Below, one piece after another: positions 3,165 through 51,825 of a stretch of DNA of 52,591 nt. Source of the DNA: Candidatus Kerfeldbacteria bacterium CG08_land_8_20_14_0_20_40_16 (GTDB lineage: Bacteria > Patescibacteriota > Patescibacteriia > UM-FILTER-42-10); assembly GCA_002774635.1 (NCBI GenBank), contig PEXU01000047.1, positions 1-52,591 on the forward strand. Reading direction: 5' to 3'. Position 1 is the stretch's first letter. Every line of letters begins with the position of its first letter. A program made the translations under genes and the position numbers. The notes under the pieces were generated by a model. That model was not told the DNA's origin, searched no databases, and saw only the letters and a list, made by a program, of their open reading frames with translations.

Positions 3165-3812
3165 TCATTCATAAAGCCAGAAATCATCACGGTCGATATG
3201 CCAGGCACTTAGCAGCTCGTCCGCCACCAAAGCAATGACATCTTTGTTCCAGTTAACTTGTTCGGCCCCCTCTCTTTCCAAAAGCACTGACCAAACAGGG
3301 CGCAAATCGTCATCTGATTGGTAAGCTTCGCATTTAGCGTAATATACTTTGTTTTCTTCTTGGTACAATGCTTTAAACAGCTCGGCGCATTTCAGTTTAA
3401 TGGAATTGAGATCCTCCAACACTTTAGTTTCATAATTGGTGGTGATTTCGTGTTCATCAGCCCAAAATCCCACCAGCGAAAAATACTCTTCCTGCTCGGA
3501 CATTCTTCGATCAGATTCGTTTTTAAAAAGATAAGGTTTGCCTTGGATATTATTGCCGGCCATTACCTCGCTGACGATTGATTTGATGTTAGCGATGCTT
3601 TCTTCCTTGTTTTCTAGTTCTTTCCCTGATTGGTTAGTTATTTCCTCAATAACCTTGGACTTTTCTTCGTAGTATTTTTCTTCCGCAGTTTTATTGCCTC
3701 CGCTCGCGTAATAAATAATCACAACGACGATTCCCGCCGCTATTATAGCCAAAACAGCAATTACTATAATTAATGTTTTTTTGGTGTTTTTCATAGGATT
3801 ATAATTAGTCAT
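3165..3812 (-). CDS. Single-pass membrane protein, function unknown. The start is probably at MTNYNP (3812), not at the upstream extension listed in the ORF track.
   Basis: N-terminal transmembrane helix (LIIVIAVLAIIAAGIVVVII) followed by a soluble acidic domain. The upstream in-frame extension runs into a GC-rich structured region. Confidence 0.45.
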   Translation of the reverse strand: MTNYNPMKNTKKTLIIVIAVLAIIAAGIVVVIIYYASGGNKTAEEKYYEEKSKVIEEITNQSGKELENKEESIANIKSIVSEVMAGNNIQGKPYLFKNESDRRMSEQEEYFSLVGFWADEHEITTNYETKVLEDLNSIKLKCAELFKALYQEENKVYYAKCEAYQSDDDLRPVWSVLLEREGAEQVNWNKDVIALVADELLSAWHIDRDDFWLYE

Positions 3813-5784: not shown

Positions 5785-6642
5785 ATGAAAAGAAGCCTTG
5801 CCATTACGCTAGTGGCTTTCGCTGCCGTTATGCTAACGGTTGGCGTAGTGAAAGCGGCATCGGAATACAATATTACTTCCACCCTAGGAGGAGTAAGCGG
5901 AGATTTTTTTGATTTAGATGGAACTTTGAAAGTTGACTCAATTAAAGTAGGGGCCCAGGGAGTAGGCGGAGTGACCTTTTTTAACGGGACGATTGTAAAT
6001 GAAACTACTAATAGCGGTGTTGATAATCCAGTTACCTTCGGCGATAATGTCAGGATTGATGGTAGAGTATATCGGGGTGCAGCCGCTGGGACAAGCGATT
6101 CCATGCCTTTTATTGTTAATGATAATATGGAAGTCACTGGTACCTTGACCGTTTCCGGATTAAGCGGTTCGGGAATTGTGTCCAGTAATAATATTGCCAG
6201 TAATGCAATTACCAGTGCCAAGGTGGCTGATGGTGCCATTGCCACAGAGGATCTAGCGGATAATTCTGTCACTCAAGCAGTGGAAGATTCTTCTACTACT
6301 TCTCAAACCACCACTAAGTCAGGGGGGGATTTCGATACCGCAGCAGAAGTTGAAATAACCACTGGTGACAGTAATCTGTTCTGCACGTTTAGCGGTTATG
6401 GAACGACTGGTAATCCTGACCATTCGATTACTGTTGCTCTGCTACTAGATAATGAAGTGATTGACCGGACCGTGCGATCAGCAACAATGGGCGGAGGAGA
6501 TGGTCATATTATCTTAAACACCACAGCTATTTTGGAAGTTGCTGCTGGTGACCACACCATCCAATTAGGATGGAATACTGATAATGAGATTACGGCCAGT
6601 CTTTATGCCAACACTCTAGATTGTATTGAACTAAAGAAATAA
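5785..6642 (+). CDS. Secreted Gly/Thr/Ser-rich beta-rich protein (fibre-like), hypothetical
   Basis: Strong Shine-Dalgarno site (aggaggtg), signal peptide ending VKAAS, and a rho-independent terminator downstream. Confidence 0.55.
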   Translation: MKRSLAITLVAFAAVMLTVGVVKAASEYNITSTLGGVSGDFFDLDGTLKVDSIKVGAQGVGGVTFFNGTIVNETTNSGVDNPVTFGDNVRIDGRVYRGAAAGTSDSMPFIVNDNMEVTGTLTVSGLSGSGIVSSNNIASNAITSAKVADGAIATEDLADNSVTQAVEDSSTTSQTTTKSGGDFDTAAEVEITTGDSNLFCTFSGYGTTGNPDHSITVALLLDNEVIDRTVRSATMGGGDGHIILNTTAILEVAAGDHTIQLGWNTDNEITASLYANTLDCIELKK

Positions 6643-27857: not shown

Positions 27858-27887
27858 GCTCTAGTCAAGAAGTAATAGAATTAACTC
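27858..27887 (+). promoter_or_regulatory. Promoter TTGACA-18-TAGAAT driving the cobalamin riboswitch
   Basis: ttgacagctctagtcaagaagtaatagaat. Confidence 0.5.
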
Positions 27888-27899
27888 ACCTTAACAATT

Positions 27900-28140
27900 G
27901 AAAGTTTAATCAGAGAGAAAACAGGGAACACCGGTGGCTCCCTCGTCAGACGAGGGGGGAATCCGGGGCAGACCCGCTACTGTGAGTTCTGAACGAAGTG
28001 AAGAAATCACCTCGAGCTTAGTCGAGAGGTGATTATTCCCCAGCTCAGAATAAGCCAGAGAACTGAATCTCTCTTGAGAAAGTCTTCTTTACTTTCTTCG
28101 CGGATAGAGAAAGGAAGGGTCTAATTTTTGCCTTCCTTGA
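27900..28140 (+). ncRNA. Cobalamin (B12) riboswitch with terminator-type expression platform
   Basis: AGGGAACACCGGTG core, B12-box-like CCGCTACTG, AAGCCAGAGAACTG (cf. AGCCAGGAGACCTGCC), and a terminal hairpin ggaagg...ccttcc + ttttttt. Confidence 0.7.
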
Positions 28141-38019: not shown

Positions 38020-38074
38020 TTAAAGTAGTTTTGAGTATTATTGCTAATTTAATGTAATCTTATATTTTTGCTAC

Positions 38075-38240
38075 GGGGTGAAAGTCCCACGCTCTTCCTG
38101 GGTGCTTAAGGTCACCTTTGGTGACATCTCCGCACCCGTCTCGGCGCTCGCCAAGACAAGTAAGTTGTCTTGCTTTCCGCGCCTCGACCCAACTGAGCCC
38201 GTCCGCCTCGGCTACGCCGAAGGCGTGCCGGGCGGGCTAC
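38075..38240 (-). other. Degenerate tRNA-Met-like duplicate (acceptor 5' strand + D-arm + anticodon-stem 5' strand) interrupted in the D-loop by a ~95-nt GC-rich hairpin-rich insertion
   Basis: GGCGGACGGGCTCAGTTGG-[insertion with hairpins ggtcacc/ggtgacc and caagaca/tgtcttg]-AGAGCGTGGGACT matches the tRNA-Met 5' half. Confidence 0.5.
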
Positions 38241-38247
38241 CCTGGCT

Positions 38248-38323
38248 TGGTTGCGGGAGGGGGATTCGAACCCCCGACCTCCAGGTTATGAGCCTGACGA
38301 GCTGACCGCTGCTCTATCCCGCG
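38248..38323 (-). tRNA. Initiator tRNA-fMet (CAT); C1xA72 mismatch, A11:U24, CCA encoded
   Basis: CGCGGGATAGAGCAGCGGTCAGCTCGTCAGGCTCATAACCTGGAGGTCGGGGGTTCGAATCCCCCTCCCGCAACCA. Confidence 0.85.
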
Positions 38324-38573
38324 TCGTGTTGTCTTTTATAATTTTAAAGAATCCATCTCCTCCTTTTTGTTTTTTAAAGAATATTTCTCTTTTTCTTGCC
38401 TGGCTAAGTTTATCGAATTTTTCTGAATAAATCAATTTCCAGTTCTTAAATCGCTTTGTCCAGGTAGATAATCCCTCATTATGTTCTTTTAGCCTTCTTT
38501 GGATATCAGAAGTAGTCCCAATGTAATACCTCTTATTTTCGCTTTGAATTATATATACTATGTACTTTTTCAT
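38286..38573 (-). CDS. Small GIY-YIG nuclease domain protein; the ORF's 3' end reads into the tRNA-fMet 5' end, so the true C-terminus is likely shorter
   Basis: YIVYIIQSENKRYYIGTTSDIQRRLKEHN (GIY-YIG with the R/E/N catalytic trio). Confidence 0.65.
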   Translation of the reverse strand: MKKYIVYIIQSENKRYYIGTTSDIQRRLKEHNEGLSTWTKRFKNWKLIYSEKFDKLSQARKREIFFKKQKGGDGFFKIIKDNTTRDRAAVSSSGS

Positions 38574-38589
38574 CTTATCATCCAGTAAC

Positions 38590-38645
38590 TATGAGCCTGA
38601 CGAGCTGATCCCGCGTCCGCGGGACTCTATCCCGCGTCGAATGCT
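38590..38645 (-). other. Partial duplicate of the tRNA-fMet 5' half (acceptor strand through anticodon, ending after CTCATA) in which the D-loop CAGCGG is replaced by the 16-nt palindrome TCCCGCGGACGCGGGA
   Basis: The minus strand reads cgaCGCGGGATAGAG-TCCCGCGGACGCGGGA-TCAGCTCGTCAGGCTCATAg, compared with the intact gene 290 bp away. Confidence 0.6.
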
Positions 38646-38707
38646 TAAGTATCTTAACTTATAAAAAAAAATCTGACAAGACAGGTGGTAATAGTAAATA
38701 TAGTCTT

Positions 38708-49355: not shown

Positions 49356-49604
49356 ATGGAGAGTGCAGGACAGGGAAGTTTATTTGCCGGAGCTTCATTG
49401 GATCCCCCTAAGCAGGGGACTATTCAATGGACCATTAGAATCAGTGGGAGGCGGGTGGTTGTGTATGCTGCTTCTAAAAGAGAAGCATTTGCTGACGCGG
49501 CTAGTGCGGTGAGACCACTGGAGGGCCGTGGTATTGAACGTCGTTACCGGCTTGCGCTCCAAATGGGCGCCAAAGTTATTTCCAAGACCCCGATCATAGT
49601 CTAG
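49356..49604 (+). CDS. Small hypothetical protein (82 aa)
   Basis: Strong Shine-Dalgarno site (aaaggagg-5nt-ATG) and a downstream terminator at 49625-49668. Confidence 0.5.
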   Translation: MESAGQGSLFAGASLDPPKQGTIQWTIRISGRRVVVYAASKREAFADAASAVRPLEGRGIERRYRLALQMGAKVISKTPIIV

Positions 49605-49624
49605 GGCTGAAGGTTGGGAATTAA

Positions 49625-49668
49625 CGAAAACAGGGCTTTCTTCTTGTTAGAACGCCCTGTTTTTTCTT
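49625..49668 (+). terminator. Rho-independent terminator
   Basis: aaaacagggctttcttcttgttagaacgccctgttttttc. Confidence 0.65.
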
Positions 49669-49770
49669 TATTCCAGTGTAACAGAGGAAGCAGTTTTTTT
49701 CAAGTTTGTGCGTATTAAGAAATTAGGAGTTGGCTTCTAAACCCTGTGCTATAAGCCAGATTAGAGCTCT

Positions 49771-49800
49771 TGACATCAGATTTTATTGTGCTAACATGGA
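49771..49800 (+). promoter_or_regulatory. Strong sigma70-like promoter TTGACA-16-TAACAT pointing into a 300-bp non-coding stretch and the tRNA-like cluster
   Basis: cttgacatcagattttattgtgctaacat. Confidence 0.45.
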
Positions 49801-50109
49801 AAACTCCTAAAAAGATACACTTTTACAATATTTAGCCATACTACTCAGGCAGCCGCTTACAAGCGGTGAAAGCTAGGCAACCCCTCCTACGCCAAAGCTG
49901 GTAGCCATCAAGTATAAGGTTTATCCCTTCTGGGTTGGACTTTATTGCTTGTAGGCGGCTCTTTGGGCAGTATTTCAACAAGTATCCGGAGTACTATTTA
50001 TAAGTCCCGGGAAAAGGAAGGATGTTGTGATCCTCCTTAAACAATGTCTCTTCCTCCCGCTTATAAATAGTATTCTGGATATTTTATAAATGGCTCTTTT
50101 GGGATAATA

Positions 50110-50217
50110 GCCCCCATAGCTCAATTGGTTAGAGCAGCGGCCTGAAAAGCTGTTAGCAGTGGTTCCCCGGCCGCCTGCTGACGCAGTCAGCGGGGCAGGC
50201 AATTCCACTTGGGGGCA
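50110..50217 (+). tRNA. tRNA-Phe(GAA)-like gene with perfect acceptor, D and anticodon arms but a 35-nt GC-rich hairpin insertion inside the T-loop (between 56 and 57); no CCA encoded
   Basis: GCCCCCA-TA-GCTCAATTGGTTAGAGC-A-GCGGC-CTGAAAA-GCTGT-TAGCA-AGTGG-TTC[CCCGGCCGCCTGCTGACGCAGTCAGCGGGGCAGGC]AATT-CCACT-TGGGGGC-A. Confidence 0.5.
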
Positions 50218-50590
50218 CGAAAAATCAGATTGCGGGCGTAGTCCCGACGTTCCGACAGTTATGTCGAAAGTCGGGATCCCGACTTCGCCTTTTGCGAACG
50301 TCGGGACTCAGTTGGTAGACCCGCCCGCCGCCGATGTAGCTCCCGCCGACGCTTTCGTTGCACTCAAGCTTTGGCGGGCGAGAGGTGTATATTGAATAAT
50401 CCACTCGCCCATCGTAACTTGGGTTAATACCCAAGCGTAGTTGGGCCAATGTAGCTAAGTCGGTAAAGCAACTCCGGTAAGGAGTAGGTCCGCGGTTCAA
50501 GTCCGCGCATCAGCTCCAGGCGGCTGGCGGGCGGGGCGTCTCTTGGTAAGAAGAGGGTCACTGGTTCGACTCCAGTCGTCCGCTCATAAT
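50218..50590 (+). other. GC-rich cluster of tRNA-like modules and nested palindromes. At 50232-50312 a nested-palindrome segment carrying D-loop-like TCAGTTGGTAGA; at 50440-50517 a tRNA-like element with canonical T-arm CGCGG-TTCAAGT-CCGCG, acceptor 3' strand and CCA; at 50531-50590 a 58-nt acceptor/T-arm minihelix (ACTGG-TTCGACT-CCAGT).
   Basis: Acceptor-stem complementarity (GCGGGCG/CGTCCGC with one G-U), T-loop consensus, D-loop-like TCAGTTGGTAGA, and perfect inverted repeats GTCCCGACG/CGTCGGGAC. Confidence 0.4.
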
Positions 50591-50628
50591 TGTTCTTCGG
50601 CTCAAGAATTTTCTTGAGCTTTTTTTAA

Positions 50629-51825
50629 TTACGCTAATTGGTTGGTCCGGGCAATTTGGGCGTAATATTCTCCGCTTGGTCTGATTTTTCTTTCTTGGGT
50701 TTTGAAATTTACGCTGAATAATCCAAACTTTTTACTGTAGCCTTCCCGCCATTCGAAATTGTCCATTAGCGACCAATGAAAGTATCCCCGGATATCGTAT
50801 CCTTCCAAAATCTTTTGATGCAATACGACAAGGTGGTCCTGAATGAACTTTATGCGCATTTTATCCTTGGCGTCGGCAATTCCATTCTCTGTGATATACA
50901 AAGGTTTATTAAATCGGGCAGCAAATTCAATTACCCGGCCTAATCCTTCCGGATAAATTTCCCAGCCATAATCGCTAACCGGAACATTTTGGGGCACCGT
51001 ATCTTTAAAGAAAGTACTGGATTGGTACAGTTTTAGTTTAACGCGAGAATGATAATAGTAATTGATGCCGATAAAATCCAGTGAATTAGCAGTTTGTTCC
51101 AGAAACCAACGGTTGTGCCATTGATGACCCAACCGGGCGGCCAGGTGATCCGTCGGCAACCAGGATCGATAAGGATCAAAGGCAATTAAGTTTTTCGCTA
51201 TCCCGACTTCCGATTGAGAATCCACCTTCTTAATTAATCCGTAAGCCAGTCGGTGGGCTTTTACCAAGTTTTTCCTGACCTCGTTGGCCGCAGAAATAGA
51301 TTTTTCTTGAGGAGGCCAGTATCCCGCCAAAAATCCCAGCTCAGTGTAAACATCCGGCTCGTTCAGGGAAATCCAGTATTTTACTGGAGGTAGGCTTTCC
51401 ACCATCTTCTGGCAATACCGGCTAAAAAGTTCTGGCGCCTGTTTATTTTTCCATCCTCCTTTTTTGGCAAACCAGTTGGGATTGGTGAAGTGATGCAGAG
51501 TAACGAATGGTTCGATCCCTAGTTTCTGTAACTCAACAACCATTTGCTGGTAGCGATTGATTGCTGCTTGATTCCATTTTCCTTCCTCTGGCTCGATTCT
51601 GCTCCATTCAATGGAAAAACGGTAGGCGTTGTTATTCAGTTTTTGAATTAAATCAAAATCTTCCAGATAGCGATTCCAGCTGTCGCAGGCTTGGCCAGAA
51701 AGAGTGCCATCATTAATTTTTCCCGGTTCCCATTCAATCCAATCATTATTCTGGCCGCCCTCTATTTGATGCGCTGAAGTAGCAGTACCCCAAAAGAAAC
51801 CCTCTGGGAATTTTTTTGTCTTCAT
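50629..51825 (-). CDS. GH1 family beta-glucosidase (short form)
   Basis: Acid/base LNEPDVY and nucleophile ITENG motifs, with an N-terminal FxWGxATSAHQ. Confidence 0.8.
   Translation of the reverse strand: MKTKKFPEGFFWGTATSAHQIEGGQNNDWIEWEPGKINDGTLSGQACDSWNRYLEDFDLIQKLNNNAYRFSIEWSRIEPEEGKWNQAAINRYQQMVVELQKLGIEPFVTLHHFTNPNWFAKKGGWKNKQAPELFSRYCQKMVESLPPVKYWISLNEPDVYTELGFLAGYWPPQEKSISAANEVRKNLVKAHRLAYGLIKKVDSQSEVGIAKNLIAFDPYRSWLPTDHLAARLGHQWHNRWFLEQTANSLDFIGINYYYHSRVKLKLYQSSTFFKDTVPQNVPVSDYGWEIYPEGLGRVIEFAARFNKPLYITENGIADAKDKMRIKFIQDHLVVLHQKILEGYDIRGYFHWSLMDNFEWREGYSKKFGLFSVNFKTQERKIRPSGEYYAQIARTNQLA

Follow-up and report, generated by a model that had tools for sequence, protein, structure and literature searches.

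We analysed a 52,591-nucleotide (nt) stretch of DNA (hereafter the window) from Candidatus Kerfeldbacteria bacterium CG08_land_8_20_14_0_20_40_16 (contig PEXU01000047.1), which carries at positions 50110–50590 a 480-bp cluster of tRNA-like modules, the first of them a tRNA-Phe(GAA) cloverleaf with a 35-nt hairpin in its T-loop. To our knowledge, the only interruptions seen in bacterial tRNA genes are self-splicing introns that sit in the anticodon loop. An earlier note, made from the sequence alone, had described the cluster correctly, including the arms of the first module and its T-loop of the form TTC-(35 nt)-AATT, and had offered as explanations intron-bearing tRNAs, tRNA-derived decoys or minihelices, and colonisation of tRNA genes by GC-rich palindromes. 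It missed that the cluster lies in a conserved small-RNA operon, that the first module is a member of a tRNA-shaped family, and that modules 3 and 4 originate from tRNA-Thr. The features of the locus are as follows.

49770–49797, + strand: sigma-70-type promoter, TTGACA-16-TG-TAACAT (promoter scan; box kept in relatives).
49815–50100 (ends approximate), + strand: leader small RNA of ~290 nt with two domains (alignment A1, RNAalifold).
50110–50217, + strand: module 1 (M1), a complete tRNA-Phe(GAA) cloverleaf with a T-loop hairpin and no encoded CCA (direct parse, ARAGORN, folds).
50166–50200, + strand: the M1 insert, a GC-rich 35-nt T-loop hairpin of 13 bp with two bulges and a GCA triloop (fold; register ±1–2 nt).
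50232–50328, + strand: module 2 (M2), an acceptor-like stem GCGGGCG/CGCCCGC (7 bp) plus TA and G, enclosing a ~67-nt three-way junction (sequence, fold).
50330–50444, + strand: module 2b (M2b), a 13-nt tRNA-Thr-like 5′ fragment, GCCGATGTAGCTC, then three hairpins (sequence, fold).
50445–50518, + strand: module 3 (M3), derived from tRNA-Thr(GGU), with encoded CCA (Rfam tRNA model, 47.2 bits; comparison with genuine tRNA-Thr(GGU)).
50526–50584, + strand: module 4 (M4), a D-armless tRNA-like element with a 9-bp acceptor-like closing stem and no CCA (alignment A2).
50599–50628, + strand: intrinsic terminator ending the operon (9-bp stem, then a T run).

The cluster has a GC (guanine plus cytosine) content of ~0.6 compared with ~0.4 in its flanks, and folds as a whole with z = −6.4 relative to shuffled sequences. 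Each module has an acceptor-type closing stem and most have a T arm. In the whole-cluster fold M1 forms an autonomous domain and the GC-rich strands of M2–M4 permit alternative nested pairings (the 5′ strand of M2, for instance, can pair instead with the 3′ strand of M4), a predicted behaviour that fits an origin by nested duplication or insertion within tRNA genes of an ancestor. A protein-coding reading was rejected: the overlapping open reading frames (ORFs) at 50159–50395(+), 50225–50500(−) and 49975–50208(−) gave no Pfam match, in agreement with the earlier view that six-frame ORFs called here are artefacts. Nor does a known RNA family replace the tRNA-like interpretation in the covariance-model check that had been proposed. 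At gathering threshold, an Rfam scan of the region matched only the tRNA of M3; at E ≤ 10 it added a sub-threshold partial tRNA match in M1 and otherwise chance-level noise of the miRNA type; and tmRNA, RNase P RNA, 6S RNA, SRP RNA and GOLLD/ROOL, considered for the whole region, gave no Infernal match.

M1 parses directly as GCCCCCA TA GCTC AATTGGTTA GAGC A GCGGC CTGAAAA GCTGT TAGC AGTGG TTC[35 nt]AATT CCACT TGGGGGC A. Its stems of 7, 4, 5 and 5 bp, together with U8, A14, G18G19 and the G53–C61 pair, make up a cloverleaf by the parse, by ARAGORN with the insert removed and by a constrained fold, and its anticodon loop, CUGAAAA, is canonical, with 7 nt, U33, the anticodon GAA and a purine at position 37. 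Instead of the 7-nt TTCRANY, its T-loop has 42 nt (TTC, 35 nt, AATT). A73 follows the acceptor stem, the A15/C48 pair is non-standard, and CCA, which the three canonical tRNAs of the window encode, is absent. The 35 nt do lie in the T-loop, as had been proposed, with a run of C residues that leaves the junction ambiguous by 1–2 nt (55/56 or 56/57). ARAGORN calls no tRNA on the native sequence and a clean 74-nt tRNA-Phe(GAA) once positions 50166–50200 are deleted, and the Rfam tRNA model (RF00005) gives a partial match of 26.1 bits over model positions 6–65, under its 29-bit cut-off. With the T-loop held open, the cloverleaf is nearly iso-energetic with the unconstrained minimum free energy (MFE) fold (−50.1 versus −50.9 kcal/mol). 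In a control scan of both strands of 0.85 Mb of unrelated bacterial DNA, no tRNA frame that depends on such an insertion was found, so the configuration of M1 is not a product of chance. Contigs near-identical to the window come from several groundwater metagenomes, and all six independent ones that span M1 (each ≥99.5% identical) contain the insert. Three single-nucleotide polymorphisms (SNPs) separate the strains within the cluster, all of them in M1 and none in M2–M4: a G·U pair becomes G–C in the anticodon stem, a hairpin bulge changes and the variable T-loop position 59 changes. All are structure-neutral or structure-improving.

The hairpin is not a recognisable intron, because no bulge–helix–bulge (BHB) motif is possible, 35 nt cannot self-splice and no intron model matched. 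An archaeal/eukaryal BHB intron, with two 3-nt bulges and a 4-bp helix, cannot form at the M1 junctions, since exon 2 opens with AATTCCAC, which offers no complement to the insert 5′ end (CCCGGCC), and the insert 3′ end offers none to the end of exon 1. No splicing endonuclease EndA was noticed among the inspected ORFs of the window, in a survey that included no search aimed at EndA. Group I introns are self-splicing, with cores a size class above 35 nt, and a group I origin was rejected on the length of the insert and the failure of any intron family to match even at E ≤ 10. The known tRNA introns of Patescibacteria are group I elements in the anticodon loop, and in a set of 95 complete Patescibacteria genomes the tRNAs escaping detection were essentially those for Asn and Asp, owing to group I introns, and not Phe (PMC13011429). 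With up to three mismatches allowed, the window holds one copy of the insert and no comparable family of GC hairpins. There are no target-site duplications, and the locus shows no evident transposase associated with the hairpins. A phage origin was also rejected, as viral contigs gave no matches to the leader anchor or to a pattern made from M3.

To place M1 among its relatives, we retrieved orthologous loci through DprA homologues, which also mark the source of the window as a Kerfeldbacteria-like bacterium, and through a DNA anchor (loci and lineages are designated L131, L135 and so on). M1 belongs to a tRNA-shaped family, which we denote GCCCAC, by its shared acceptor stem and D arm, its compensated stems and its location in the leader operon. 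We tabulated the stems of M1 and of the last modules of L135, L137, L139 and L140 explicitly (a MAFFT alignment mis-registered the variable loops) and added L150 as a sixth member. The acceptor 5′ strand and D arm of M1 are identical to those of the L137 last module at 25 of 27 positions, the single stem difference being compensated. Across the five tabulated members, 104 of the 105 stem positions are paired (101 Watson–Crick, 3 G·U, 1 mismatch), and compensatory changes occur in 10 of the 21 pairs. The anticodon loops, by comparison, have diverged: CUGAAAA occurs only in M1, the others being GCCUAA (6 nt), two unrelated 24-nt loops and CCAGGUG (7 nt, no U33); that of L150 is CCAGGAG, again lacking U33. 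Three members have 6-nt D-loops without GG. As judged from this tabulation, the fold of the family appears to be under selection and decoding does not, M1 being the only member that still has a canonical GAA loop.

T-loop hairpins recur in these loci. In the comparison of orthologous loci that had been proposed, the family member of L135, which is not a sister lineage of the window, carries a GC hairpin of 28 nt where M1 has its T-loop insert, whereas the T-loops of the L137, L139, L140 and L150 members are intact at 7 nt. Two other L140 modules, with different bodies and T-stems, carry T-loop hairpins that are ~93% identical. In L135 and in module b of L140 the T-loop bases are themselves paired, and T arm and insert merge into one continuous helix of 13–17 bp capped by an NCA triloop; in the L150 counterpart of the latter, a 5-bp stem bears a 5-nt loop. 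All carriers of a T-loop hairpin other than M1 appear, on independent grounds, to be non-decoders.

After the leader, the sister species, L131, has a normal tRNA-Phe, a class-II-like aberrant tRNA-Phe(GAA) and a tRNA-Trp. The aberrant gene (L131 2964–3049, − strand), next to the normal tRNA-Phe, is 86 nt long and scores 40 bits; its D stem is weak and it carries an additional variable arm. A 12-nt anticodon-arm core, GGCCTGAAAAGC, is common to M1 and both L131 Phe genes. M1 without its insert matches the sister tRNA-Phe at 50 of 74 positions, and on that identity we rejected M1 as its simple orthologue; most likely M1 descends from a tRNA-Phe gene of the leader operon.

M3 and M4 are derivatives of tRNA-Thr(GGU) with anticodon loops of 5 and 6 nt, respectively. 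M3 aligns end to end with tRNA-Thr(GGU) genes (alignment A2), from which it differs by a deletion of positions 32–33, two D-stem changes and two acceptor mismatches. Its score passes as that of a tRNA, but its loop is the 5-nt GGUAA without U33 and only five of seven acceptor positions are paired. The earlier note had called this module a tRNA-like element with CCA; the CCA is there, and the body can now be assigned to tRNA-Thr(GGU). The tRNA-Tyr(gta) that ARAGORN reports here is an artefact of a forced 7-nt anticodon loop and was rejected. M4, previously taken for a minihelix, indeed has no D arm, but it also has a Thr-type anticodon arm with the 6-nt loop GGUAAG, a Thr-type variable region and a canonical T arm. 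It gives a weak tRNA-Sec-type match in Rfam (21.3 bits), and its 3′ half is 80% identical to that of the last module of L137. A degenerate DNA pattern based on the GGTAAG loop common to M3 and M4, scanned over genome contigs, returned 120 matches, ordinary tRNA-Thr(GGU) genes only, and so brought the Thr ancestry to light.

The segment that had been described as a nested palindrome is better read as M2, whose 7-bp acceptor-like stem and D-loop remnant (CTCAGTTGGTAGA, 50307–50319) surround the three-way junction; it folds with z = −4.96. The opening 13 nt of M2b are a near-repeat of the start of M3, and M2b folds with z = −3.26 and has no Rfam match of note. Neither M2 nor M2b is significantly similar to element X, a structured element of the relatives described below, or to other parts of the window.

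The cluster is the fast-changing, lineage-specific 3′ tail of a conserved leader-RNA unit. At least eight related lineages have the leader, placed between Pth and DprA. Promoter and leader are 83–88% identical among L131, L135, L137, L139 and L140, and are also found in L143 (truncated) and L150, all within one Pth…DprA-TopA neighbourhood; in these seven the leader is preceded by the promoter box cTTGACA...TGTGCTAACAT, with a spacing across relatives of TTGACA-N16/17-TG-TAACAT. RNAalifold on the leader alignment (A1, seven lineages) gives 87 predicted pairs and finds compensatory changes in 16 of these; each of the two domains has an apical loop with CCUCC (CAACCCCUCCU and GAUCCUCCUUAA), which would be anti-Shine–Dalgarno-like. 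No Rfam family matches the leader. What follows it differs in every lineage. L146 has the leader without any tRNA module; the tails of L135, L137, L139, L140 and L150 hold element X, real tRNAs (His, Met, Lys and others) and several aberrant tRNA-like modules. In L139, the acceptor stem of a gutted tRNA-His derivative is kept by a compensatory change. Element X is GC-rich and ~135 nt long, follows the leader in relatives (L135 5875–6008 and 5570–5700, L137 5875–6008, all on the − strand; also L139, L140 and L150) and is absent from the window; its closing stem, GGGUCCG/CGGACCC, is followed by ACC(A), and it has several GNRA loops. The core of the L135 copy scores 32.8 bits against the Rfam c4-2 antisense RNA family (RF02944), under the 41-bit cut-off. 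In the window, RF02944 has no + strand match, only a chance match of 17.7 bits on the minus strand (49550–49608).

Tentatively, and with slightly less than even confidence, we favour a reading in which the cluster encodes tRNA-derived, non-decoding structural RNAs that are processed by RNase P/Z and retain T-arm expansions. One promoter (49770–49797) would drive a precursor of ~830 nt comprising the leader RNA, M1, M2/2b, M3, M4 and the terminator. RNase P, at 5′ ends, and RNase Z or exonucleases, at 3′ ends, would cut it to release the leader small RNA and stable, GC-rich, tRNA-shaped RNAs. The 35-nt hairpin would be no intron but a retained lengthening of the T arm, and it would, with the shortened anticodon loops, exclude these RNAs from normal decoding. 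What selection preserves would then be the tRNA-like fold and not the anticodon, the fold serving RNA processing or stability or mimicking a tRNA for some tRNA-binding factor. We infer co-transcription, RNase P/Z processing and a function of the modules from features of the sequence; RNase P is documented to act also on RNAs other than tRNAs that have an acceptor-like stem, c4 antisense RNA among them (PMC4919922). The structure of the cluster is likely to be selected because it folds with z = −6.4, has 60% GC in a 40% GC genome, carries only neutral SNPs and has a counterpart in the compensated tRNA-His stem of L139. This reading comes close to the tRNA-derived decoys or minihelices that the earlier note had listed among its options.

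Several observations weigh against this reading. Two of its steps, co-transcription and RNase P/Z processing, are ones that we infer; homologues of M2–M4 occur only in near-identical strains, which leaves their folds without covariation support, and the family analysis comprises five or six sequences only. No standard element of the cloverleaf is missing from M1, and over 12 nt its GAA anticodon arm matches those of both sister-species Phe genes exactly, as would fit a working tRNA-Phe; its T-loop bases, unlike those of L135 and module b of L140, are not absorbed into the helix, so that a T-loop fold could survive. High turnover, chimeric (module a of L140) and truncated modules and the lack of an array in L146 would in turn fit neutral debris.

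That M1 is a working tRNA-Phe, with the hairpin tolerated as an elbow expansion or removed by a pathway that is neither BHB nor group I, seems unlikely to us. In favour of this reading, the cloverleaf of M1 is flawless, with a canonical CUGAAAA loop and A73, and when its T-loop is held open it lies practically level in energy with the MFE fold; its SNPs preserve structure and the insert is fixed in six assemblies. The normal tRNA-Phe of the sister species occupies the same post-leader position, the operons of relatives hold real tRNAs (His, Met, Lys and Trp), and the sporadic, precise presence or absence of T-loop hairpins in the family resembles the behaviour of introns. Yet the other T-loop-hairpin carriers are all apparent non-decoders, and the M1 body, besides its modest identity to the sister tRNA-Phe, belongs to a family that has lost the anticodon elsewhere. 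With BHB formation impossible and self-splicing excluded by length, with no encoded CCA and a non-standard A15/C48 pair, and with Phe not among the tRNAs undetected in complete Patescibacteria genomes (PMC13011429), M1 is probably not an intron-bearing functional tRNA, and on these grounds and the non-decoding character of the relatives' hairpin modules we set aside the earlier proposal of one. More doubtful still is the stronger form of this idea, in which M1 is the sole tRNA-Phe of the organism and is either used in translation as an elbow-hairpin tRNA or freed of its T-loop insert by a pathway other than BHB/EndA cleavage or self-splicing. If it were true, M1 would reveal a new route of tRNA maturation or an unexpected tolerance of the translation apparatus, and the sporadic, site-specific hairpins of related modules would constitute a new class of bacterial tRNA insertion element.

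We likewise doubt, to much the same degree as for a working tRNA-Phe, that the cluster is non-functional debris, that is, decaying tRNA pseudogenes and fragments left at a tRNA-gene hotspot by duplication, recombination and mobile-element activity. The tail changes its content wholly between lineages and is missing from L146; chimeric or truncated modules occur (module a of L140, M4, the 13-nt 5′ fragment at 50330), M3 has acceptor and D-stem lesions, the other tRNA cluster of the window includes a tRNA-Met half-duplicate next to a GIY-YIG gene, and insertion sequence and Y1-transposase genes lie near the locus in relatives. Decay is difficult to reconcile, however, with 60–77% GC and strong folding (z = −6.4) kept in a streamlined genome of 40% GC, with compensatory changes that preserve the stems of the M1 family and of the gutted tRNA-His across lineages, with a 9-bp closing stem in M4 that is unlikely by chance, or with strains that show no SNPs in M2–M4 and only neutral ones in M1. 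The T-loop hairpins could, finally, be a small GC-rich palindromic mobile element that targets T-loops, like a repetitive extragenic palindrome, a miniature inverted-repeat transposable element (MITE) or an intron, and that hit M1 recently; this we consider improbable. The same insertion site is used in different genes and in non-sister lineages, the hairpins share one style (GC stem and NCA triloop), and the ~93% identical pair in L140, seated between different T-stems, is what lends the idea of GC palindromes colonising tRNA genes some weight. But the insert has no second copy or similar GC hairpin family in the window, the inserts of the window, L135 and L140 cannot be aligned with one another, target-site duplications are missing, 28–35 nt encode nothing, no transposase is evident at the locus and viral contigs give no matches.

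Comparison with known systems helps to situate the favoured reading of processed, non-decoding RNAs. BHB introns in the T-loop or T arm of tRNA genes are known from Crenarchaeota and from the red alga Cyanidioschyzon merolae (for example, PMC3241643, PMC9602550). Like these, M1 is an otherwise perfect tRNA gene with a short interruption in the T-loop region that standard finders miss. In contrast to BHB introns, which are cut by EndA/TSEN, it forms no BHB, its host is bacterial, and relatives carry the same kind of insert on modules that do not appear to function as tRNAs. The group I tRNA introns of Patescibacteria occur in the same phylum and also let interrupted genes escape annotation, but they sit in the anticodon loop (for example, at 35/36) and match the Rfam group I model, whereas the M1 insert sits in the T-loop, is 35 nt long and matches no intron family.

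tRNA-like modules that guide processing are known from tRNA punctuation and the MALAT1 mascRNA (PMC8457004), and bacterial non-tRNA substrates of RNase P include c4 antisense RNA, 4.5S RNA and tmRNA (PMC4919922). The present modules resemble mascRNA and c4-type substrates in having acceptor/T-arm-like structures within a longer non-coding transcript, which could guide RNase P/Z and fix the ends of the RNAs, cleavage in our case being predicted, and the operons of relatives include a c4-2-like element. They differ in that tRNA-shaped modules follow one another without obvious cargo between them, with hairpin extensions of the T arm and anticodon loops of 5–6 nt. Non-proteinogenic tRNAs, such as the staphylococcal tRNA-Gly of cell-wall synthesis, and tRNA mimics, such as the bacterial Y-RNA YrlA, have an altered elbow/T-loop or anticodon and take no part in decoding on the ribosome, yet still make other tRNA interactions. 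The cluster shares with these, as far as its sequence alone can tell, tRNA-shaped RNAs altered at the T-loop/elbow or anticodon; the Rfam YrlA model has no match in the region, and a hairpin within the T-loop is not described for those RNAs. With tRNA pseudogenes and degenerate arrays, the cluster has in common tandem tRNA-derived sequences, lesions, truncations, chimeras and fast turnover; it departs from them in the compensated stems of the M1 family over five lineages and in a GC-rich structure kept in an AT-rich reduced genome.

A clean T-loop hairpin insertion that recurs at one site in related tRNA-shaped genes is, in the searchable literature, not described. The relatives compared here suggest that a reduced genome of the Candidate Phyla Radiation encodes a conserved family of tRNA-shaped RNAs, in which the anticodon has been given up, the fold kept and the whole tied to a leader RNA. 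If the modules are processed and stable, they would represent a natural bacterial reuse of tRNA scaffolds as processing or stability modules or as mimics. Annotation programs miss or mis-call such genes, as ARAGORN does in overlooking M1 and labelling M3 tRNA-Tyr.

Further observations concern the surroundings of the locus. In several relatives (L131 ~3470–3560, L145 ~500–650 and L150 ~6310–6350, all on the − strand), promoters have a short inverted repeat, CCCCGTTAGA...TCTAACGGGG, next to or overlapping their −35 box; the repeat may be MITE-like or an operator. Upstream of the promoter in the window, an 82-amino-acid ORF (49356–49604, + strand) has a GC content above that of its surroundings, its own terminator-like hairpin (49630–49665) and no Pfam family; it is 34% identical to an 88-amino-acid ORF divergent from DprA in L135, both having a KREAFA motif. 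Its counterpart next to DprA in relatives is weak, and we rejected the ORF as part of the RNA unit. Within the cluster, at 50227, 50308, 50574 and 50579, four independent contigs from metagenomes (L004, L002, L009 and L010) terminate, which suggests branching of assembly graphs at tRNA-like k-mers or strain-level structural variation. Where L135, L137 and L150 have Mfd (TRCF), between Pth and DprA, the window has a GH1 glycosidase (50629–51825, − strand) and the RNA array; the Pth–DprA locus is rearranged in this lineage.

Elsewhere in the window, the region 38336–38660 (− strand) contains a degenerate duplicate of the 5′ half of the initiator tRNA-Met, broken after anticodon-loop position 37. 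It lies just upstream of an ORF for a 79-amino-acid GIY-YIG nuclease (38336–38573, Pfam 65 bits), which is followed by an intact tRNA-Met (38248–38323). The arrangement looks like the relic of a homing-endonuclease-type insertion, and L150 has a GIY-YIG ORF at the equivalent place. Between two tRNA-Met genes lies a GC-rich, apparently structured spacer of ~175 nt (38070–38245, − strand) with a D-loop-like CTCAGTTGGGTCGAGG and GGCGAG motifs, for which Rfam gives no match; because of this spacer, GC-rich modules between tRNA genes are not confined to 50110–50590. A cobalamin riboswitch match is found at 27886–28084 (+ strand), scoring 38 bits against a gathering score of 31.5 bits.

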